64,000 bases of DNA from Alphaproteobacteria bacterium (GTDB lineage: Bacteria; Pseudomonadota; Alphaproteobacteria; UBA828), in assembly GCA_965237415.1 (NCBI GenBank), contig CBDEFM010000002.1:2560001-2624000 (forward strand), given 5' to 3'. Of the stretch, positions 8,760-26,608 are shown one piece after another. Below the pieces are notes generated by a model. The model worked only from the letters and a program-made list of their open reading frames with translations. It searched no databases and had not been told where the DNA came from. The stretch's first letter is position 1, and every line of letters starts with the position of its first letter. The position numbers and the translations under genes are program-made.

Positions 8760-9857
8760 TCAGATCACCCGCTCGCTCTCCGGATCGACGAGCACGGCCC
8801 GGTTCATGTCCAAATCGAGCGCGAGCGAATCCCCCGGCTGCTCGGCGGCGGAGCCGTCCAAGCGCACGAGCATCGAGGTCTTGCCGAGGTGGAAGTTGAC
8901 GAGCGTGTTGGCACCCATGGGCTCGACAATCTCGACGGTGGTCGCGAGCCGCGCGCAGTCGGGCCTGGGCGTCTCGCCCTCGGCCCGGTACATGTGCTCG
9001 GGCCTGATGCCCAAGAGCACGTCGCGGCCGCCGTCGCCGGCGTAGCGCGCCGCCCGCTCCGGCGGCAGGGCGAAGGCATGGTCACCGGCCCTCACCGCGG
9101 CCGCGCCGTCCGCCGCCTCGATCAGTGCCGTGGCAAAATTCATCGCCGGCGAGCCGATGAAGCCCGCGACGAAGCGGGTCGCCGGCCGCTCGTAGAGCTC
9201 CAGCGGCGGCCCCTCCTGTTCGATCTGGCCGTCGCGCAGCAGCACGATCCTGTCGGCGAGCGTCATCGCCTCCACTTGATCGTGGGTCACGTAGATCATG
9301 GTCCGCTGCATGTCCTGATGCAGCCGCTTGATCTCGGTGCGCATCTCGTCGCGCAGCTGGGCGTCGAGGTTGCTGAGCGGCTCGTCGAAGAGATAGAGCT
9401 TGGCGTCCCGCACCAGCGCGCGGCCCATGGCGACGCGCTGGCGCTGGCCGCCGGAGAGCTGGCGCGGCTGGCGCTCGAGCAGGTCCGCAATCCCCAGCAT
9501 CGTGGCCGCCCGCTCCACCCGCGGGCGAACCTCGGCGGTGGCCGTGCCCCGCATCCGAAGCCCGAAGGCCACGTTCTCGAACACCGACATGTGCGGGTAG
9601 AGCGCGTAGTTCTGAAACACCATGGCCACGTCCCGGTCCTTTGGCCGGACGTCGTTGACCACCGCGCCATCGATCTCCACCGTGCCCTCGGTCACCTCCT
9701 CCAGGCCTGCGATCATGCGCAAGAGCGTGCTCTTGCCGCACCCCGACGGCCCCACCAGCACGGTGAAGGCGCGGTCCGGTATCTCGATATCCACACCGCG
9801 CACGGCATGAACCTTGCCGTAGCGCTTGTGCACGCCGCGCAGCCTGACTCCGGCCAT
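8760..9857 (-). CDS. Carbohydrate ABC transporter ATP-binding protein (UgpC/MalK family)
   Basis: [25 protein letters not shown]-terminal TOBE-like region. Confidence 0.95.
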   Translation of the reverse strand: MAGVRLRGVHKRYGKVHAVRGVDIEIPDRAFTVLVGPSGCGKSTLLRMIAGLEEVTEGTVEIDGAVVNDVRPKDRDVAMVFQNYALYPHMSVFENVAFGLRMRGTATAEVRPRVERAATMLGIADLLERQPRQLSGGQRQRVAMGRALVRDAKLYLFDEPLSNLDAQLRDEMRTEIKRLHQDMQRTMIYVTHDQVEAMTLADRIVLLRDGQIEQEGPPLELYERPATRFVAGFIGSPAMNFATALIEAADGAAAVRAGDHAFALPPERAARYAGDGGRDVLLGIRPEHMYRAEGETPRPDCARLATTVEIVEPMGANTLVNFHLGKTSMLVRLDGSAAEQPGDSLALDLDMNRAVLVDPESERVI

Positions 9858-9867
9858 CGCGCTCCTC

Positions 9868-10743
9868 CTACCCCTTGACCGCGCCCATGGTGATCCCGCG
9901 CACGAGGAAGCGCTGGAGCGTCGCCACCGCGAAGAACACCGGCAGGGTGCCAAGCACCGAAAGCGCCGCGATCTTCGCCCAGAATGTCGACTGGGCGCCG
10001 TAATAGTGGGTGACCAGCACGGGGAAGGTCAGCACTTCGTGGCGCGTCAGAATCAGCGCGAAGACGAACTCGTTCCACGCGAAGATGAAGGTGAACACCG
10101 CCGTCGCGAAGATGCCGGTGCGCGCCATCGGGAACACGATCTTGCGCAGCGCCTGCCAGCGCGAGCAGCCGTCGGTCAGCGCGCTCTCCTCCACCTCGAC
10201 CGGGATGTCCTCGATGTAGCCGCGCATCATCCAGATCACGTAGGGCAGATTGAACGCGATGTAGAGCAGGATCAGCCCGACGTAGCTGTCGATCCAGCCG
10301 AACCAGACGAACAGCAGGAAGATCGGGAAGACGATGACGATCGGCGGGATCATCCGCTGCGAGATGATCCAGATCGCGAGGTTCTGGCCGCCGGTCTTGA
10401 AGCGCGCGAGGCTGTAGGCAGCCGCGGTGCCCAGCACCATGGCAACGACGGTCGAGACGCTGGCGATGATGAGGCTGTTGTAGATCGCCCAGACGTCGCC
10501 GTCTTTGAACAGGATCCCGAAGATGCGGAAGTTCGGCTCGTTCGGGAACCAGACCGGCGGGCGGGCGAAGATATCGCCCGCCGATTTGATCGAGGTGATG
10601 AAGAGCCAGTAGACGGGGAAGAGGAAGATCACCAGCACCACGAGCGCAATCAGGAAGCGCCAGGTCATGCGCCGGCGCTCGCGGGTCAGCCAGCGCGGCC
10701 ACATGCTGGTTCGGGTGGGGGCAGGTGTGTCGGACACCGTCAT
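9868..10743 (-). CDS. Carbohydrate ABC transporter permease (MalG-like)
   Basis: EESALTDG EAA loop, AWNEF. Confidence 0.95.
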   Translation of the reverse strand: MTVSDTPAPTRTSMWPRWLTRERRRMTWRFLIALVVLVIFLFPVYWLFITSIKSAGDIFARPPVWFPNEPNFRIFGILFKDGDVWAIYNSLIIASVSTVVAMVLGTAAAYSLARFKTGGQNLAIWIISQRMIPPIVIVFPIFLLFVWFGWIDSYVGLILLYIAFNLPYVIWMMRGYIEDIPVEVEESALTDGCSRWQALRKIVFPMARTGIFATAVFTFIFAWNEFVFALILTRHEVLTFPVLVTHYYGAQSTFWAKIAALSVLGTLPVFFAVATLQRFLVRGITMGAVKG

Positions 10744-11654
10744 CGGGCGATCTCCACCCGCTTGAGCGCGAAAATGACGATGATCGAGAGCAGGATGATC
10801 ACCAGGAAGGCGATCGCGCCCGCATAGCTCGTCTCGAACTCCTTGAAGGCCCGGATGTAGGTGTAGATCGAGATCGTCTCCGTCATCGTGCCGGGGCCGC
10901 CCTTGGTCATCGCCCAGATGATGTCGAAGATGCGGAAGAGATCGAGCGCACGGATCAGGATGGCGATGACGAGCACCGGCTTGATGACCGGCAGCGTGAT
11001 CCTGAAGAATATCTTCCAGAACGAGGCGCCGTCGATCTCAGCCGCCTCGATCAAGCTGCGGTCGACGTTGGAGAGCGCGGCCAGCAGGATCAGGAACATG
11101 AACGGCGTCCACTGCCACACCTCGCAGACCAGGATCGCGGGATAGACCCATTCCGGCCGCGACAGCCAGAGGATCGCCATCGGGTCCGACGAGAACCAGC
11201 CGATGATCTGGTTGATCGGGCCGTACTGGTTGTCGAACATCAGCCGCCACGTGGAGCCTGCAACGATCGGCGAGATGACGGTCGGGATGATGAGAAGCGC
11301 GACGAACACCTGCTTGAGCGGCATCTTTTCCAGGAAGAGCTGCGCCATGAGGAGGCCCAGCACCAGCTCGATGGGGAGCGCGATCGCCAGGATCAGGAAG
11401 GTGTGGCCCATCGATTCCCAGAGCCGCGTGTCCGAGAAGAGGGCCGCGTAGTGCTTGCCGCCGGACCAGGAGGTGTCCTCGGCCAGCATGGTGATGTCCT
11501 GGAAGCTGACGATACCGGTGTGGATAATCGGGTAGAGGCCGACCAGCAGGAGCACGATGATCGACGGCGCGATCACCAGCCACTTGAAATGCCGGTCGGC
11601 GAAGAGGTTCGCGCGGTGGCCGAAGTGCGGGCCCCGGCCCGCGGCGACCGTCAT
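10740..11654 (-). CDS. Carbohydrate ABC transporter permease (MalF/UgpA-like)
   Basis: WQWTPF, EAAEIDGAS, TKGGPG. Confidence 0.95.
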   Translation of the reverse strand: MTVAAGRGPHFGHRANLFADRHFKWLVIAPSIIVLLLVGLYPIIHTGIVSFQDITMLAEDTSWSGGKHYAALFSDTRLWESMGHTFLILAIALPIELVLGLLMAQLFLEKMPLKQVFVALLIIPTVISPIVAGSTWRLMFDNQYGPINQIIGWFSSDPMAILWLSRPEWVYPAILVCEVWQWTPFMFLILLAALSNVDRSLIEAAEIDGASFWKIFFRITLPVIKPVLVIAILIRALDLFRIFDIIWAMTKGGPGTMTETISIYTYIRAFKEFETSYAGAIAFLVIILLSIIVIFALKRVEIAR

Positions 11655-14245: not shown

Positions 14246-14941
14246 ATGAACCTCACCCCGACAGAGCAGGAGCGGCTCACCATCTTCACTGCCGCCCAGC
14301 TTGCGCGTGAGCACAAGCGCCGCGGCATCAAGCTCAGCCACCCGGAAGCGATCGCCTATATCTGCGACGAGCTCCTGATGTGTGCGCGCGAAGGTCGCAC
14401 CCTCAAGGACCTTATGGGCTATGGCGCGGAGATCCTCACGTCGGACGACGTGATGCCGGGCGTGCCGGAGCTGATTCCGGTCATCCATGTCGAGGCGGTG
14501 TTCCCGGACGGCGCCAAGCTCATCACCGTGCACCAGCCGATCCGCCCGGGCACGGCGGAGAGCCCGCCCAGCCCCCGCGCCGGCGAGATCATCACGCCGG
14601 ACGAGGAGATCGAGCTGAACGCAGGCCGGAGGACCGGATCGGTGGCGGTCACCAACACCGGCGACCGCCCGGTCCAGATCGGCAGCCACTTCCACTTCTT
14701 CGAGATCAACCGGGCCCTCGACTTCGATCGTCAGGCGACCTTCGGCATGCGCCTCGACATCCCGTCCGGCACTGCCGTGCGCTTCGAGCCCGGGCAAGAG
14801 AAGGAGGTCGCGCTGGTGGAGATCGGCGGCCGCGGCCGGGTCACCGGCTTCAACTCCCTCACCGAGGGCATGATCGATTCGCCCGAAGTCAAGGATCAGG
14901 CGATCGCCCGCGCGAAAGCGGGCGGCTTCCGGGGAGCGTAG
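14246..14941 (+). CDS. ureAB: Urease-family fused gamma-beta subunit
   Basis: Gamma part (MNLTPTEQE...[14 protein letters not shown]) fused to beta part ([17 protein letters not shown]...[15 protein letters not shown]). Confidence 0.95.
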
Positions 14942-14945
14942 GCAG

Positions 14946-16655
14946 ATGGTGAAGATCGCACGCGAGACCTATGCCCGCTACTACGGGCCGACCAAGGGCG
15001 ACAAGATCCGACTCGGCGATACCTCGCTGATCGGCGAGATCGAGCACGACCACACCACCTACGGCGATGAGTGCTGGACCGGCGCCGGCCGCGTGATGCG
15101 CGACGGCATGTCCTACGACGCCCATACCTCCGCAGCCGACGGCGCCATCGACATGCTGGTCGAGAACGCGACCGTCATCGACCCCGTGCTCGGCCTCGTG
15201 AAAGCCGACATCGGCATCAAGGACGGCAAGATCGCGGGCGTCGGCAAGGCCGGCAATCCCAACACGCAGGACGGGGTGGATTCGAACCTCGTCTGCGGCC
15301 CCAACACCACCTACTACCCGGCCAGCGGCCTTATCGTGACGCCGGGCGGCATCGACGTGCACGTCCACTGGTTGTCGGCGGACCAGTGCAACCACGCGCT
15401 GGCGAGCGGGCTCACCACCATGATCGGCGGCACCATGGGACCGCTCTTCGCCATCGACTGCGGCGGCCCCTGGAACACCTACCGGATGCTGGAGGCATCG
15501 GAAGCGTGGCCGATCAATTTCGGCTTCTTCGGCCGCGGCTCGTCCCACGATCCGGCGACCATCGTCGAGCATCTCGACGGCGCCATCATCGGCGTCAAGA
15601 TCCACGAGGACTACGGCGCCATGCCGGCCACCATCGATGCCTGCCTGCGCGCCTCCGCCGAGCACGATTTCCCGGTCCAGATACACACTGACACGCTGAA
15701 CGAGTCCGGCTTCTACGAAGACACGATGGCGGCGATCGCAGGTCGCACCATCCACATGTACCACACGGAAGGCTCCGGCGGCGGCCACGCGCCGGACATC
15801 ATCCGCTGCAACGGCGAGCCCCACTGCCTGCCGTCGTCGACCAACCCGACCAACCCCTACACGGTCAACGTCTTCGACGAGCAGCTCGACATGACCATGG
15901 CCTGCCATCTGCTGCGCTACGACCTGCCGGAAGACGTGGCCTTCGCCGAGAGCCGGGTGCGGCACGGCACCATCGCGGCCGAGGACGTGCTGCACGACAT
16001 CGGCGCGGTCTCGATGTTCGGCTCCGACAGCCAGGGCATGGGGCGGATCAACGAGGTCATCACGCGCTGCTGGCAGCTTGCGAGCAAGATGCGCGACCAG
16101 CGCGGGCGGCTACCTGAGGAGACCACCGCCGACGCCGACAACGAGCGCATCAAGCGCTATATCGCGAAATACACCATCAACCCGGCGATCGCCTTCGGCG
16201 TCGACCAATACGTGGGCTCGCTGGAGCCCGGCAAGATGGCCGATCTCGTCACCTGGAAGCCCGCCTTCTTCGGCATCAAACCCTTCGGCGTCATCAAGGG
16301 CGGCTTCGTCGCCTGGGGCCAGAGCGGCGATCCCTCCGGCAGCTACTTCCAGACCGAGCCGGTCATCATGCGGCCCCAGTTCGGCCATCACGGACGCGCG
16401 CCGGCGACGCTGAGCGCCGTCTTCGCGCATCGGCGCGCGCTCGATATCGACGTGCCCGGCCGCATCGGCCTGAGCAAACCGATCCTGCCGATCGGGAGCT
16501 TCACCAAGCTCACCAAGAAGGACATGCTGCACAACGACGCCTGCCCCGACATCCGCGTCGACTCCCAGACCTTCGAGGTCTTCGTCGACGGGACGCTGGC
16601 GGCCTGCGAGCCGATCGACAAGATCACCCTCGGCCAGAACTACCTGCTGCGCTGA
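14946..16655 (+). CDS. ureC: Urease-family alpha subunit, divergent
   Basis: [35 protein letters not shown] metal-site motifs; several pocket motifs altered. Confidence 0.9.
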
Positions 16656-16663
16656 GCCTTCGT

Positions 16664-17521
16664 TTGGCTGCCTCCGTGTCCCAGGCTGCCCGGGCCAATG
16701 AGGAGCCACAGGCGGCGCTCCGCTTCGCCCGCGCACCCGATGGCCAGAGCTACATCGCCCGCCAGCGCGTCGGCTACCCGTTCCACATCACCCGGCCGTT
16801 CTACTTCGACGAGGCGCCGGCCGGAGCGTTGACGCTCTATCTCCAGTCGGTCTCCGGCGGCATCTACCAGGGCGAGGATCTGCGCATGATCTGCGGCGCA
16901 GAGGCCGGCAGTGCCGCCCATGTGACCACCCAGGCGGCGACCATCGTGCACCGGATGCCTGCCGCGCCGGCGCGGCAGACGGTCGCGCTGGAGGCGGCTG
17001 ACGGTGCGCTTCTCGAATATCTGCCGGACCCGCTGATCATGTTTCCGGGCGCCCGGCTCACCTCGCTGCTGGAAATCGAGGCCGCGGAGGGTGCCACGGT
17101 CATCGCGTCCGAAAGCTTCGCTCACCACGACCCCGGCGGCGAGGATCGACGGTTCGAAAGCTTCGCGGCGGAGATGCGTATCCGCGATGAGGGGGGCCGC
17201 CTGCTTGCGCTGGAGCGCTACGCCCTCGCCGGCGATCGTCTGGCGAAGGGTGCGAGCCAGATCGCGCGCTGGCCGGCGCAGGGCAGTCTCGTCGTCGCCC
17301 ACCGCGGCCCTGCGCGCGAGGCCATCCTGGCCGCTCTCCGCTCGGCGCTTGCGCCGACGGAGGCCTTCTACGGCGGCGCCTCGGCGCTCCCCAACGAGGC
17401 CGGTGTGGGCGTGCGCCTGCTGGCGCGGGACGGGGCCCGGCTGCGGCGCGGGCTGGAGGCAGCGTGGTGCGCAGTCAGGCTCGCGCTCTACGGCGCGCCG
17501 CCCGCCCGCCGCCGCAAGTAG
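16664..17521 (+). CDS. ureD: Urease accessory protein UreD
   Basis: YPFHITRPFY, SGGIYQGE, TTQAATIVH, LEYLPDPLIMFPGA; directly follows ureC. Confidence 0.9.
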   Translation: MAASVSQAARANEEPQAALRFARAPDGQSYIARQRVGYPFHITRPFYFDEAPAGALTLYLQSVSGGIYQGEDLRMICGAEAGSAAHVTTQAATIVHRMPAAPARQTVALEAADGALLEYLPDPLIMFPGARLTSLLEIEAAEGATVIASESFAHHDPGGEDRRFESFAAEMRIRDEGGRLLALERYALAGDRLAKGASQIARWPAQGSLVVAHRGPAREAILAALRSALAPTEAFYGGASALPNEAGVGVRLLARDGARLRRGLEAAWCAVRLALYGAPPARRRK

Positions 17522-22552: not shown

Positions 22553-25500
22553 CTACTCTTCGAGCGACTTCAGCAGATCGTCGACGAGGTCTTGGAGGTC
22601 CTCGTCCTTGTCGCGCTCAGGTGCTGGCAGGGGCTCGGGCACAGGCTCCTCGGGCGCGGGCGCCTCGGTCGGGGGCGCTGCTTCGCGCTCCTCCTCCCCG
22701 CCAGTCTCTAGCGGCTCCTCGACCTCTTCCCTCTGCTCGACGCCTGCCGCCTCTTCCGGCTGACGCGCCTCGACGGGCTCCGTCGCCACCGCCGCATCGC
22801 CCGAGCCATCGCCCGGCGACGCCGCGGCATCCCCCGCTCCGTCCTCTTCTTGGGCGTCCACCGCTTCACTCGGTTCGCCCGCTCCCGCGCGTTCTTCCGG
22901 CTCGTCGGGCTCTTCCGCTGTCTCGGCGTCCTCGGCCTTGTCCGGATCGCCGAGCACGTTTCTGAGCAGGGTGTCCATCTCGGTTCCGGGCTCCGCCTTG
23001 GCACCCTTGCGCAGCGTGATCTTGGGCATGCCGGGCGCGCCGGCGAGCGAGAGCAGCCCGAGCTTGACCAGGTGGGCCTGCATGTCCGCGATCAAAAGGC
23101 GGCGCTCCGGCCGATCGATCGGCCCCTCGAACCGTATGCCGACAGGCGGGGCATCCGCGTGCTCGGTGAGGCGGAACAGCGCCGTGAGGTCTAGCTGCCA
23201 CGCGGGGAGATCGGCGGTACCGCTGATTTCGCCGACGCCCCCCTCGGCGACGACCTCGAAGCCGTCGATGCGTGCCTGGCCGTCCTGTACCCGCACGGTG
23301 CCGTCGAGGGAGCGGATTGCCGTTCGCCCGCTGGATAGGCTTTGCTCGGTCCCATCGACGAAGCTCGCGATGTCTTCGAGCGCATCGACCTTGGAGAGCG
23401 CGTCGATCTGGCGGCTGATCGCCGGCACGTCCACGCCCTCGACGGCGCCCTCGCTGGCGGCAAGCGCGACGCGGCCGGAGAGGCTCTGCATCATCTCGCG
23501 GGCCGTCTGCCCGCGCAGGGTGAAATACCCGTCGACCTCGGCGCGGCCAGAGACCGCATCGACGCCTGCAATCTCGCGCAGGATGGCGCCCAATTCCGCA
23601 TCGGTGAGCCGGAATGCCGCCTGCCCCGCCGGCACCGGTCCGCCGGCGAGGCTGCCGTCGGCCTTCAGCGCCCCGTCGAAAAGCCGGCCGGTAAGCGAAC
23701 GCAGCGTCAGCGTCCCCTCGGCTACGGCCAGATCGACGTCGGCCTGTTCGATGCGGTAGGCGCCGAGAAGGAGGGCCTCGGCGTCGAGCGCGAGTGTTCC
23801 GGAGAGCCGATCGAGGACCGTGAGGTCGATCGTTTCGTCGGACCAGCGCGCGGGCTGCGGTGCAGCGCCCTCGGTGCCGGTGCCCGCAAGGTCGACACTT
23901 ACCGATGGTGTCCCGCCGGCCTCCGTCTCGCCCGTCGCGGCAAGACCGCCGCCCAACCATGCGAGGTCGAGCACGCCGCCATGAAGGTCGGCGCTGAACC
24001 CCGGCGGCTCCTGATCCAGGCGGAGGAAGACCCCGCCGGTCAGCGTGCTGTCGCCGATCATGGCGTCGATGTCGGCGAAGCTTGCCACAGTCCGGTCGCC
24101 GGATACCTTCCCGGCGAGGCGCAGCGCGCCGAGGGCAACATCCGCCGGCGCGTCGCCGACCAGGGTTTCGACCAGGGCCTCGCCGCGCGGATGGGCGAGA
24201 TCGACATCGACGCTGTAGCTGGGAGAAGCGAGCGGATCCGTGACCTTGCCAGCGACCTGAAGCGTCGCGCCGGCGGTCTCGGCGCTCATGTTGATCGCGA
24301 CGGAGTCGAGATCGCCGCCGATCCCGCCCTCCATCGTCAGCGCGCCGAGCCGCGTGACGATAGGCGGTGGCGTGAGCCCGACGCTGCGGGCGAGCGAGGC
24401 GGCATCCGGTGCCTGCAGGCTGAAGGCGAGCGCCGCGGCGGGCGCGCCGAAGGGTTGCTCGACGGTACCTGCCAGCGACGCCTGGGCCGCGCCAGCAGCG
24501 AGAGCGAGATCGATCGACAGTGCTTCCTCATCGCCCGCGAGCGCACCATTCAGCGTGACCTTGCCGAACGCCTCGGCGCGAATGTCGGGATCGATGTCGA
24601 GGAGCGCGAGGACACCGTCGAGCGAATCAGCCGCAGCTTCGACCGCGAGATCGAAACTTGGCGCCGTCCCGACCGTGCGCCCGGTGCCTGACAACAGGAT
24701 GCTGGCGCCCGCTGCGTCCGCGACCGACGCCCGCCGCAGGGTCAGGTCGCCCTGGTCGAGGGCCGCGTCGAATTCCAGCCCGGCCAGGCGCACTCCCCCG
24801 TAGGTAAGCGCATCGATCTTGAGCGCGACGTCGGCGTCGATCTCGTCGAGCACCGGCCATGCTCCACCCCCCACGCTATCCCCCGCGCGGCCCGGCGTTG
24901 GCTGTGCCGCCTCCTGCGGCGCTGCGTCCGCATCGCCTGTCGCACGTGACGGCGCCGGGCCTGCATCGAGCAGGTAAGCGTCGACATTCACAGCGTCGAC
25001 AGCGAGGTCGGCGGCGATCTGCGGCCGCTCGCTCGTCTCGATGGACACGTTGCCGGCGATCCGCGTGGTATCGATCCTGATGTCGAGATTGGATGCCGAC
25101 AGCCGATCGCCGTTGGCAGAGAGATCGGCACTCGCGCTGAGGTGTCGGAGCCGATCCGCCGGGACTGCCCCCACATCTACGCCAAGCCAGGAGAGGGTGG
25201 CGCGCAGGTCCTCGGTCGCGATCTCGCCGACACCCTCCATCCACTGGCCGTTGCCGTTGGCGGTCAGCCGGCCGGCGAGGTCGACGTCCGCGCCTCCGGG
25301 CAACAGCGCCGACGTTTGCCGGATCGTGACCACGCCGTTCTCGAGCGCAAGACGCGCCCTGGCCTTACGGATGACGCCCTTGCGCCAGGTGACCGCACCG
25401 ATCGTAAGGTCTAGAGCGGCATCGATCTTCGTGGGAATTTCGTGCCGGATGTCGTCTGTGATCGATTGCGGCGTGGCCAGAGCCACTGCATTGCTCGACT

Positions 25501-26608
25501 GCCCGGCACCGTCCGAGCCCGCCGCCTCCGCAGTCTGCGGTTCGCTGCCAGAGCCTGCCGATCCCGCGGGCTTGGGTTTGCCGTCATCCGGCAGGAAGCG
25601 ATCGAGGTCGATGCGGTTGAGGTCGATCTCGGCCGCTAACCGCGGCACCTCGCCATCCTGCCAAGAGAGCGTGCCGTTCGCCTGGCTCTCGCCCAGTCGA
25701 ACCTGAAGCTCGCGTGCGGCGATGGTATCCGCGTGCACGCTGAATTCGCCCTTGGCAGAGAATTCTCTACCCAGCGGCTCGGCGGGCAGCGACCCGAGAT
25801 CCACGGCGAGCGCATTCAGGAGAGCGCCGAAGTCGGACGCCTCGGCCCGCACGCTGCCGTCGAACGCAGGCATCCCGTCGATGCCTTTGAGGATGCCCTC
25901 GAACAGCGCGCTGCCCCGCTCACCGCCGAAGGTCGCTTCGAACGAGACCGGCAGAGTGCGGTCTTCGCCGACCGTGCCCGTCGCGAGCCGAAACTTGATC
26001 GCCCGGCCGCGCACGGCGAGATTGCCCTCCCCGCGGAAGGGACCGTCGAGGGAGCGGGCAGAGATCGCCGCGTCGATCCTGTCTATTCGCGCCGGGGGCT
26101 CATCGTGCGCATGGCGATAGACGATCGTACCGTTCGTTATGGTCGCAGAGTCGATCCTGGTCAGCCCGAGGTCGGCTGCCTCCGGTTCGCCATTGGCAGA
26201 GGTCTCCACCGTCGGGTCGGTCTCAGGCTCGAAGAGCCAGTTGGGACGGCCGTCGGCGAGGCGCTGGAGCTCGATCACGGGCTCCACCATCTCGAGACTG
26301 GTGACGGCGATCTTGCCGCCGAGGAGCGGCCCCAGCGCAAGCGTGAGATCGAGCGAGGCGATCCGCGCCATGTCGGGGGCGACCGCGCCCGGCGCGTTGG
26401 CGATGCGAAGGTCGGCGGCCTTGATTGTGGGCGTCGGCAGGATGGAGACCGCGAGCGGGCCGTCGATCGCAATCTCACGACCGGTGATGGCCTCCAGGCG
26501 CTCCGTGATCTCGGGCTTGAACCGCTCCCAATCGAGAACCGACGGCACGATGAAGAGGGCAGCGACGACGAGGACCAGAAGGACGAGTAAAGCGTAAACG
26601 AATTTCAC
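22553..26608 (-). CDS. asmA: AsmA family protein (long form)
   Basis: N-terminal TM anchor plus PSVLDWERFKPEI...TGREIAIDG AsmA N-terminus; acidic C-tail. Confidence 0.85.
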   Translation of the reverse strand: MKFVYALLVLLVLVVAALFIVPSVLDWERFKPEITERLEAITGREIAIDGPLAVSILPTPTIKAADLRIANAPGAVAPDMARIASLDLTLALGPLLGGKIAVTSLEMVEPVIELQRLADGRPNWLFEPETDPTVETSANGEPEAADLGLTRIDSATITNGTIVYRHAHDEPPARIDRIDAAISARSLDGPFRGEGNLAVRGRAIKFRLATGTVGEDRTLPVSFEATFGGERGSALFEGILKGIDGMPAFDGSVRAEASDFGALLNALAVDLGSLPAEPLGREFSAKGEFSVHADTIAARELQVRLGESQANGTLSWQDGEVPRLAAEIDLNRIDLDRFLPDDGKPKPAGSAGSGSEPQTAEAAGSDGAGQSSNAVALATPQSITDDIRHEIPTKIDAALDLTIGAVTWRKGVIRKARARLALENGVVTIRQTSALLPGGADVDLAGRLTANGNGQWMEGVGEIATEDLRATLSWLGVDVGAVPADRLRHLSASADLSANGDRLSASNLDIRIDTTRIAGNVSIETSERPQIAADLAVDAVNVDAYLLDAGPAPSRATGDADAAPQEAAQPTPGRAGDSVGGGAWPVLDEIDADVALKIDALTYGGVRLAGLEFDAALDQGDLTLRRASVADAAGASILLSGTGRTVGTAPSFDLAVEAAADSLDGVLALLDIDPDIRAEAFGKVTLNGALAGDEEALSIDLALAAGAAQASLAGTVEQPFGAPAAALAFSLQAPDAASLARSVGLTPPPIVTRLGALTMEGGIGGDLDSVAINMSAETAGATLQVAGKVTDPLASPSYSVDVDLAHPRGEALVETLVGDAPADVALGALRLAGKVSGDRTVASFADIDAMIGDSTLTGGVFLRLDQEPPGFSADLHGGVLDLAWLGGGLAATGETEAGGTPSVSVDLAGTGTEGAAPQPARWSDETIDLTVLDRLSGTLALDAEALLLGAYRIEQADVDLAVAEGTLTLRSLTGRLFDGALKADGSLAGGPVPAGQAAFRLTDAELGAILREIAGVDAVSGRAEVDGYFTLRGQTAREMMQSLSGRVALAASEGAVEGVDVPAISRQIDALSKVDALEDIASFVDGTEQSLSSGRTAIRSLDGTVRVQDGQARIDGFEVVAEGGVGEISGTADLPAWQLDLTALFRLTEHADAPPVGIRFEGPIDRPERRLLIADMQAHLVKLGLLSLAGAPGMPKITLRKGAKAEPGTEMDTLLRNVLGDPDKAEDAETAEEPDEPEERAGAGEPSEAVDAQEEDGAGDAAASPGDGSGDAAVATEPVEARQPEEAAGVEQREEVEEPLETGGEEEREAAPPTEAPAPEEPVPEPLPAPERDKDEDLQDLVDDLLKSLEE

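Follow-up and report, generated by a model that had tools for sequence, protein, structure and literature searches.

Ureases are generally regarded as a family with one substrate and a pocket that hardly varies. The canonical nickel ureases include those of Klebsiella aerogenes and K. pneumoniae (UreABC), Sporosarcina pasteurii, jack bean and Helicobacter pylori, and in the last of these the enzyme consists of two chains, UreA and UreB, with gamma and beta fused. Helicobacter mustelae reportedly has, as a second paralog of two chains, the iron urease UreA2B2, which is said to be encoded without local accessory genes. A gene arrangement ureEF(A/B)CGD, known from genome data only, is called 'urease 2' of Acidithiobacillus ferrianus in PMC8886135. 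In Brucella, according to PMC2868824, only ure1 encodes an active urease; ure2 is transcribed, and genes for a urea transporter and for a nickel transport system are located in its region. In the present study, we analyzed a urease-type locus, ureAB-ureC-ureD, at positions 14246-17521 of a 64,000-nucleotide stretch of alphaproteobacterial DNA, and this whole stretch is called the window below. The encoded enzyme has the fold, the family membership, the six metal ligands, the catalytic residues and the accessory genes ureD, ureF, ureG and ureE in common with the canonical nickel ureases, but it differs from them in its motif set, in a loop that is 4 residues shorter, in the fusion of gamma and beta, and in the distribution of its accessory genes over three loci. 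It resembles Brucella ure2 in being encoded by an extra urease cluster; for ure2, that source reports no demonstrated urease activity.

The three genes of the locus are as follows; lengths are in amino acids (aa), and clade B is defined below.

14246..14941, plus strand: ureAB, fused gamma/beta structural subunit, 231 aa (Pfam and NF009671)
14946..16655, plus strand: ureC, alpha (catalytic) subunit, 569 aa, clade B (TIGR01792 and NF009686)
16664..17521, plus strand: ureD, accessory protein docking on the apoenzyme, 285 aa, TTG start (Pfam UreD)

The three open reading frames (ORFs) are intact and are separated by gaps of 4 and 8 bases, and the GC content at the third codon position (GC3) of ureAB, ureC and ureD is 0.90, 0.93 and 0.86, respectively, in a genome of about 68% GC. 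UreAB contains Pfam Urease_gamma at residues 1-99 and Urease_beta at residues 113-208. UreC contains Pfam Urease_alpha and Amidohydro_1, and it scored 737.6 bits with TIGR01792, above the curated equivalog cut-off of 680 and below the values of the two other copies in the genome (812.5 and 746), as well as 790.8 bits with NF009686 (cut-off 354). UreD matched its Pfam family at E = 2.9e-39. Membership in the urease family is therefore established by these scores. When solved structures were searched with phmmer, 32 distinct urease sequences matched the window UreC at E <=1e-50, the closest being that of jack bean (3la4, E 3.2e-187); the UreA2B2 structure 3qga matched at 603.7 bits. The window UreC is 52-55% identical to solved ureases over its full length, and thus its fold is not in doubt. 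In a library of representatives at 50% identity, which served for outgroups only, the best matches were ordinary ureases with 53-54% identity.

The first-pass annotation of this DNA, made from the sequence alone, described the fusion of gamma and beta as Helicobacter-style. The fusion itself is real, since UreAB matched NCBIfam NF009671, 'bifunctional urease subunit gamma/beta', over its full length (residues 1-230) at 337.8 bits against a cut-off of 243. In contrast, the scores with the two Helicobacter families were below their cut-offs (NF010592, 268.9 against 353; NF010591, 685.6 against 1083), so the fusion belongs to a different family. H. pylori urease also retains the canonical pocket motifs in our alignment, unlike the window UreC.

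In order to place the residues of the window UreC, we used the K. pneumoniae UreC (L093, an annotated record) as a ruler, which has the expected residue at 15 of 15 positions checked in the K. aerogenes numbering. All six ligands of the di-nickel site are kept, namely His134, His136, the carbamylated Lys217, His246, His272 and Asp360, as the first-pass annotation had claimed. The Cys-His pair of the flap and the Arg of the AESR motif, which it had also listed, are present as Cys319, His320 and Arg336, together with His219, Asp221, Gly277 and Met364. Position 167 is still Ala (FAIDCG) and lies, as had been noted, in the shortened loop, which has 4 residues fewer than the canonical one. At position 363, Ala is replaced by Gly, as it is throughout the short-loop lineage described below. 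In S. pasteurii, the equivalents of His219, of the carbonyls of Ala167, Ala363 and Gly277, and of the triad Asp221-His320-Arg336 bind urea and lock the flap, as stated in PMC7433671. The residues that contact urea are all kept in the window UreC, and thus its pocket is not obviously enlarged.

The six motif changes reported in the first-pass annotation were all found. Compared with the canonical sequence, KFGGGK is changed to WTGAGR; the loop after GGG, canonically GGGTGPA.GT.ATTCTPG, is shortened by 4 residues; VCHHL in the flap is changed to ACHLL; SDSQAMGR is changed to SDSQGMGR (Ala363Gly); the NASIPT region reads SGSYFQTEP; and the terminal YFLF is changed to YLLR. That is, the window UreC lacks the canonical motif set ([KV]FGGGK, GGGTGPA.GT.ATTCTPG, VCHHL, SDSQAMGR and NASIPT). 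In mutagenesis of K. aerogenes urease, Cys319 and His321 were reportedly found to be non-essential.

These changes had been read against K. aerogenes alone. We therefore placed them on a tree of 106 UreC sequences, thinned at 92% identity, which was built from 120 database homologs, the UreCs of 78 genome loci, three annotated references, the three copies of this genome and 18 divergent representatives. A second, careful tree of 54 rows agreed with the first on the clades; no root was inferred. The clades were sampled from 120 homologs and 153 loci out of more than 8000 homologs. A canonical clade with support 100/99 contained K. pneumoniae, Thiobacillus, a Nitrosopumilaceae archaeon and Verrucomicrobiota, and in this clade GGGTGPA.GT.ATTCTPG, VCHHL, SDSQAMGR and NASIPT were present in 14 of 14 rows, as was [KV]FGGGK (KFGGGK in 13). 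Two sister clades of fused, short-loop enzymes were also recovered. One of them, clade A (30 rows of the 106-sequence tree, support 96/87), includes the second fused copy of this genome and has the near-fixed motifs LHGGGK, GGSLGPITVGIDCGG., and AASLMT, together with KIHEDWG and VCHHL. The other, clade B (44 rows of the same tree, support 100/99), has a loop one residue shorter than that of clade A. The first-pass annotation had proposed that a UreC phylogeny might reveal a separate clade, and it was clear that the window UreC falls outside the canonical clade and within clade B. In the careful tree it belongs to a subclade of 9 rows (support 100/99), 8 of which, all but P0020, carry the core motifs W[TV]GAGR, KIHEDYG, [AS]CHLL and SY[FWLM].

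Clade A contains the 'urease 2' enzymes, such as those of Methylobacterium radiotolerans pMRAD01, Aminobacter, the Acinetobacter plasmid NZ_CP015595 and Acidithiobacillus ferrianus. Their UreCs are 62-66% identical to the window UreC, and they share with it the NF009671 fusion, the short loop, Ala363Gly and the terminal Arg; these last three features are common to the whole short-loop lineage in the 106-sequence tree. In contrast, the window enzyme has SGSYFQ, a loop shorter by one residue and no urt link, and the gene order among its relatives is C-D-G, while that of clade A is C-G-D. In Aminobacter aminovorans, UrtB, C, D and E are encoded just upstream with scores above the NCBIfam cut-offs. 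In M. radiotolerans pMRAD01, the annotated cluster ureE-ureF-fused subunit-ureC-ureG-ureD is flanked by urate-catabolism genes on one side and by urtA on the other, and in the Acinetobacter plasmid urtA adjoins the ure cluster. The members of clade A are tied to urea by these neighbours and are probable ureases. Three of the six motif changes, that is, the short loop, Ala363Gly and the terminal Arg, are found in this urea-linked clade and are therefore marks of the lineage and not evidence for a new substrate. Thus, of the argument in the first-pass annotation that the motif changes point to a substrate other than urea, the part that rests on these three falls away, and the remaining, subclade-specific changes give it partial support.

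Seven other proteins (P0135, P0152, P0162, P0168, P0169, P0174 and P0199) are full-length, very divergent and urease-alpha-like, with 35-41% identity, and lack the carbamylated Lys, the flap His or the Asp360 motif. They may be non-catalytic relics of urease.

The changes specific to the subclade of the window are W44, A47, R49, one extra deletion in the loop, W222Y, V318A/S, H321L, 'RY' at 323-324 and 'SY[FW]' at about 465-467. We defined conserved columns as those in which the same residue occurs in >=90% of both the canonical and the clade A rows, and 223 columns were obtained. In the subclade of the window, 13 of them are fixed to a different state: G47A, K49R, E122G, deletion of 165, N198S, Q208H, W222Y, V235A, A236S, Q242P, H321L, T374C and A463G. 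W222Y adjoins Asp221, and H321L adjoins the catalytic His. The subclade-specific changes fall in three segments, which hardly vary in canonical and clade A ureases but differ freely from one clade B subclade to another. The mean entropies of these segments are shown below for each clade.

Canonical ureases: KAU 44-49, 0.06; flap 313-326, 0.40; KAU 462-470, 0.11; background 0.69; mean pairwise identity 0.73
Clade A: KAU 44-49, 0.04; flap 313-326, 0.36; KAU 462-470, 0.06; background 0.51; mean pairwise identity 0.81
Clade B: KAU 44-49, 0.92; flap 313-326, 1.32; KAU 462-470, 1.64; background 0.93; mean pairwise identity 0.67

Across clade B, His320 (44 of 44 rows), Lys217, His219, Asp221 and Asp360 never change. 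The flap Cys occurs in just 11 of the 44 rows and position 321 takes at least 6 states, and the motifs are stable inside each subclade. Such variation of three segments is the pattern expected of positions that may determine specificity or gating, without proving a new substrate.

The genome carries three strong UreC genes, as found by a search of the whole assembly, and none of them is canonical. The first-pass annotation had raised the possibility of a second, canonical urease in the genome; two further UreC paralogs were found, and neither has the canonical motif set. These two clusters, and the accessory genes that lie apart from the window locus, are as follows.

C2:2553139-2550728, minus strand: second fused pair, ureF-ureAB-ureC, with ureF upstream; clade A, UreC 64% identical to that of the window
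C2:2553155-2553874: ureF beside the second fused urease, 21 kb from the window locus
C2:1859053-1864449: split cluster ureA-ureB-ureC-ureE-ureF-ureG-ureD, UreC 49% identical to that of the window
C2:3327004-3328187, minus strand: orphan pair ureE2-ureG2, about 750 kb away, between genes for an acyl-CoA dehydrogenase and an AMP-dependent ligase

The window locus itself has only ureD as a local accessory gene. We compared it with the same type of operon in marine relatives, which show 79-83% identity. Among 10 genome loci of these relatives, ureF was present in 8, ureD in 10 and ureG in 8, and the misses were mostly at contig ends; among 14 marine metagenome contigs, ureE was present in 8, ureF in 10, ureD in 13 and ureG in 13. 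From these counts, the ancestral unit is taken to be ureE-ureF-ureAB-ureC-ureD-ureG. The window-type operon was complete in the genomes of the marine relatives (n=5, metagenome-assembled). One metagenome contig, L146, has ureAB-ureC without any accessory gene within 8 kb on either side.

The dispersed accessory genes of our genome are related to those of the marine operons. A tblastn sweep located UreG2 at C2:3327004-3327660; its identity is 74-81% with the UreG of the marine operons, 66-73% with the UreGs of clade A and 54% with the one in the split cluster of the same genome. Its gene overlaps that of UreE2 by 4 bases. Of the 12 same-genus genomes searched, 11 retain UreG2, at a great distance from ureC. 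UreE2, a UreE-like protein of 176 aa (Pfam UreE_N, 2.1e-9), is 62-66% identical to the UreE of the marine operons. The window UreD groups with the UreD of the marine operons (Shimodaira-Hasegawa-like approximate likelihood-ratio test, SH-aLRT, 87). The UreF encoded next to the clade A pair is joined, with weak support (85, long branches), to the UreFs of clade B and not to the main clade A group. At the clade A locus of four marine relatives, we did not find ureF, and in L178 a short-chain dehydrogenase-like ORF stands in its place. The presence and the kinship of these genes are direct observations. They suggest that the UreE, UreF, UreG and UreD proper to the window enzyme may be preserved at three loci and that the enzyme is probably matured with nickel in the ordinary way.

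The mechanism that we propose is as follows. The enzyme would be (UreAB-UreC)n, a fused gamma/beta urease of clade B with standard maturation. UreD, encoded adjacently, would dock on the apoenzyme, and UreF, encoded 21 kb away, together with UreE2 and UreG2, encoded about 750 kb away, would deliver nickel and carbamylate the active-site lysine. The product would be a specialised isozyme working beside two other urease-type paralogs. That is, the window enzyme is, as far as can be judged from its sequence, predicted to be a functional nickel-urease-type hydrolase of the fused lineage, with a standard core, a subclade-specific lid and a dispersed accessory set. Nickel loading by this set, urea as the substrate and altered kinetics are what we infer.

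The ure genes are under purifying selection. The ratio of nonsynonymous to synonymous substitution rates (dN/dS) against seven same-genus orthologs was 0.03-0.10 for ureC and 0.05-0.23 for ureAB. At 15 same-genus loci, UreC was 93-99% identical and ureAB-ureC-ureD was present in 15 of 15. It is therefore very hard to regard the window UreC as a paralog that is decaying or non-catalytic and lacks any enzymatic function, and this is the least probable of the explanations that we considered: frames that are intact, catalytic residues that are all kept, the low dN/dS and the high identity across the genus speak against it, while only its being an additional copy whose local accessory set is incomplete, and the Brucella precedent of a ure2 that is transcribed though ure1 alone encodes an active urease, agree with it.

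The first-pass annotation had also suggested an altered use of metal. An enzyme that uses another metal, or that does not depend on accessory proteins, like H. mustelae UreA2B2, would account for a locus that has lost ureE, ureF and ureG, and it would agree with the observation that only ureD accompanies ureAB-ureC in all 15 same-genus loci and with the state of L146. We consider it very improbable. Compared with UreA2B2, the window enzyme has an adjacent ureD, which is retained under selection beside ureC, and cognate ureF and ureE2-ureG2 at other sites of the genome; UreG2 is conserved throughout the genus. These cognate genes are present and conserved, which is not the state expected of an accessory-independent enzyme of the UreA2B2 kind. 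Moreover, ureE, ureF, ureD and ureG all belong to the ancestral operon, and the ligands are identical to those of nickel ureases. Thus, altered metal use is unlikely, because cognate UreE, UreF, UreG and UreD are kept at three loci, and we do not retain this suggestion.

As to the substrate, we estimate a probability of about 0.5 that the window enzyme is still a urease, with changed gating or affinity. This reading is favored by the retained residues that hold urea and lock the flap, by the TIGR01792 score, by the accessory genes of the marine operons and their counterparts in this genome, by the low dN/dS of ureC and by the ties of the sister clade A to urea transport and urate catabolism. 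Several results weigh against this reading. The three segments that are near-invariant in canonical and clade A ureases reach entropies of 0.92, 1.32 and 1.64 in clade B. Three strong UreC matches were found in 15 of 18 same-genus genomes, and the window type was never the sole UreC where the assemblies were good; the exceptions were G006 with two matches (92% complete, 460 contigs), G012 with one (67% complete) and G015 with none (62% complete). The same three UreC types recur in marine relatives that are about 80% identical, and this long joint retention argues against redundancy. Neither a urea transporter nor a urea-producing enzyme is adjacent in the window, in the 15 same-genus loci, in the 10 marine genome loci or in the 14 marine metagenome contigs. 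As to the transporter, the first-pass annotation had said the same of the window; the two Urt systems of the genome (UrtB above cut-off) are found about 0.4 Mb from the locus, at 2.98 and 3.06 Mb. Ureases need not be linked in the genome to urea uptake. Finally, in the literature searched, which covered few subscription journals, we found no assay of a fused non-Helicobacter urease, clade A and clade B enzymes included, nor of a urease homolog with another substrate.

The same results can be read in favor of a nickel-dependent amidohydrolase of the urease fold whose main substrate is a related small compound, such as a substituted urea, a small amide, a carbamate or a guanidino or ureido compound, clade B being a radiation of such enzymes with subclade-specific lids. 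This is a possible explanation, to which we give less credence. It would account for the three paralog types kept together from the genus of the window to the marine relatives, for the subclades of clade B that fix their own motifs in otherwise invariant segments while the catalytic residues never change, and for the 13 changed columns out of 223, including W222Y and H321L. The role of the urease could be filled by the clade A copy of the same genome, in which the canonical flap is preserved. The lack of a link to urea uptake agrees with this explanation too, as do orphan clade B ureAB-ureC pairs that lie beside unrelated importers, namely an SBP_bac_1 ABC system (L030) and SBP_bac_5 with an MttB-like gene (L057). 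Against it, the known urea-contacting residues are all retained, and no substrate is indicated by a conserved neighbour. In addition, in 4 of 5 marine relatives' genomes, which are metagenome-assembled so that absence of others is not established, the only UreG found is that of the window-type operon, as would be the case for a principal urease; its position marks the window type as a principal nickel enzyme. We know of no urease homolog with another physiological substrate. Of the first-pass proposal of a substrate other than urea, then, the well-supported clade B and the three variable segments remain in its favor, but no neighbour supports it. A wider form of the idea is rated slightly less probable. 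In this form, clade B as a whole would be a radiation of nickel-dependent urease-fold hydrolases that have gone from urea to other small nitrogen compounds, with lid and loop motifs of their own in each subclade, and the W[TV]GAGR/[AS]CHLL/SY[FW] enzyme would be kept beside a true urease (clade A) and the TCHNL type in marine and sponge-associated Alphaproteobacteria.

Whichever substrate applies, a large sister lineage is seen here in which the catalytic core is frozen, the lid and two normally invariant segments differ by subclade, and up to three paralogs are long kept. If the members are all ureases, they offer natural lid variants for studies of gating and affinity. If another substrate holds true for even one subclade, this would be a new branch of nickel enzymology with the first urease homologs of a different physiological substrate, and it would alter the interpretation of 'ureC' as an indicator of urea use in surveys of marine and sponge microbiomes. 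An accessory set spread over three loci, if cognate as we suppose, would also be misread as an incomplete system by annotation pipelines that expect one operon.

The other two UreC types have features of their own. The UreC of the split cluster has a long branch (end branch 0.79-0.82), TCHNL for VCHHL, SDSQGVGR, GGGN for GGGH and a short loop. The split cluster is the only complete ure cluster of the genome, and an amidase and another amidohydrolase are encoded about 3-5 kb upstream. Among the five marine relatives, two have the TCHNL-type split cluster, at 91-92% identity. As for the clade A pair, 4 of the 5 marine relatives (G002-G005) have ureAB-ureC without accessory genes, flanked by the same amidohydrolase genes: a 577-aa amidohydrolase flanks 4 of 4 copies, and a 441-aa amidohydrolase was matched in 3 of 4. 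At the clade A locus of our own genome (C2:2549476-2555582), the 441-aa protein is a cytosine-deaminase-like amidohydrolase whose gene overlaps the end of ureC, and the divergent 577-aa amidohydrolase gene lies upstream. This arrangement suggests that the clade A pair and its flanking amidohydrolases form a fixed catabolic module feeding a urease.

Around the window locus, we found no conserved neighbour beyond the ure genes in the window, the marine locus L024, the loci L018 and L019, the clade B orphans L030 and L057, and the 14 metagenome contigs, and the neighbourhood was dropped as a clue to the substrate. One neighbour was considered as a partner of the ure genes:

8760-11654, minus strand: UgpC/CUT1-type ABC importer (one ATPase, two permeases), with no binding-protein gene beside it

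In the gammaproteobacterial locus L030, homologs of this importer with 59-69% identity are encoded after an orphan clade B ureAB-ureC pair and an SBP_bac_1 gene. In the window, the importer lies on the opposite strand with three genes between and has no binding-protein gene; the link is unproven, and we set it aside. In one same-genus relative, genes of a three-subunit molybdenum hydroxylase of the xanthine-dehydrogenase family (L018:5345-9128, minus strand) lie divergently beside ureAB-ureC-ureD, at that locus only.

In the 68-bp gap upstream of ureAB, a consensus scan, in which sigma-54 sites were not searched, gave no promoter-like site. Of the words sampled from the 3.3-kb stretch, 20-46% occur in six metatranscriptome runs, which come from three studies; since DNA may be present in RNA libraries, these matches give no more than a hint of transcription. 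Several public runs that contain 14246-17521 are labelled sponge metagenome, and these labels hint that the source organism lives in sponges. The window also contains, at 22553-26608 on the minus strand, an ORF of 1351 aa with a coding-like GC3 of 0.82.

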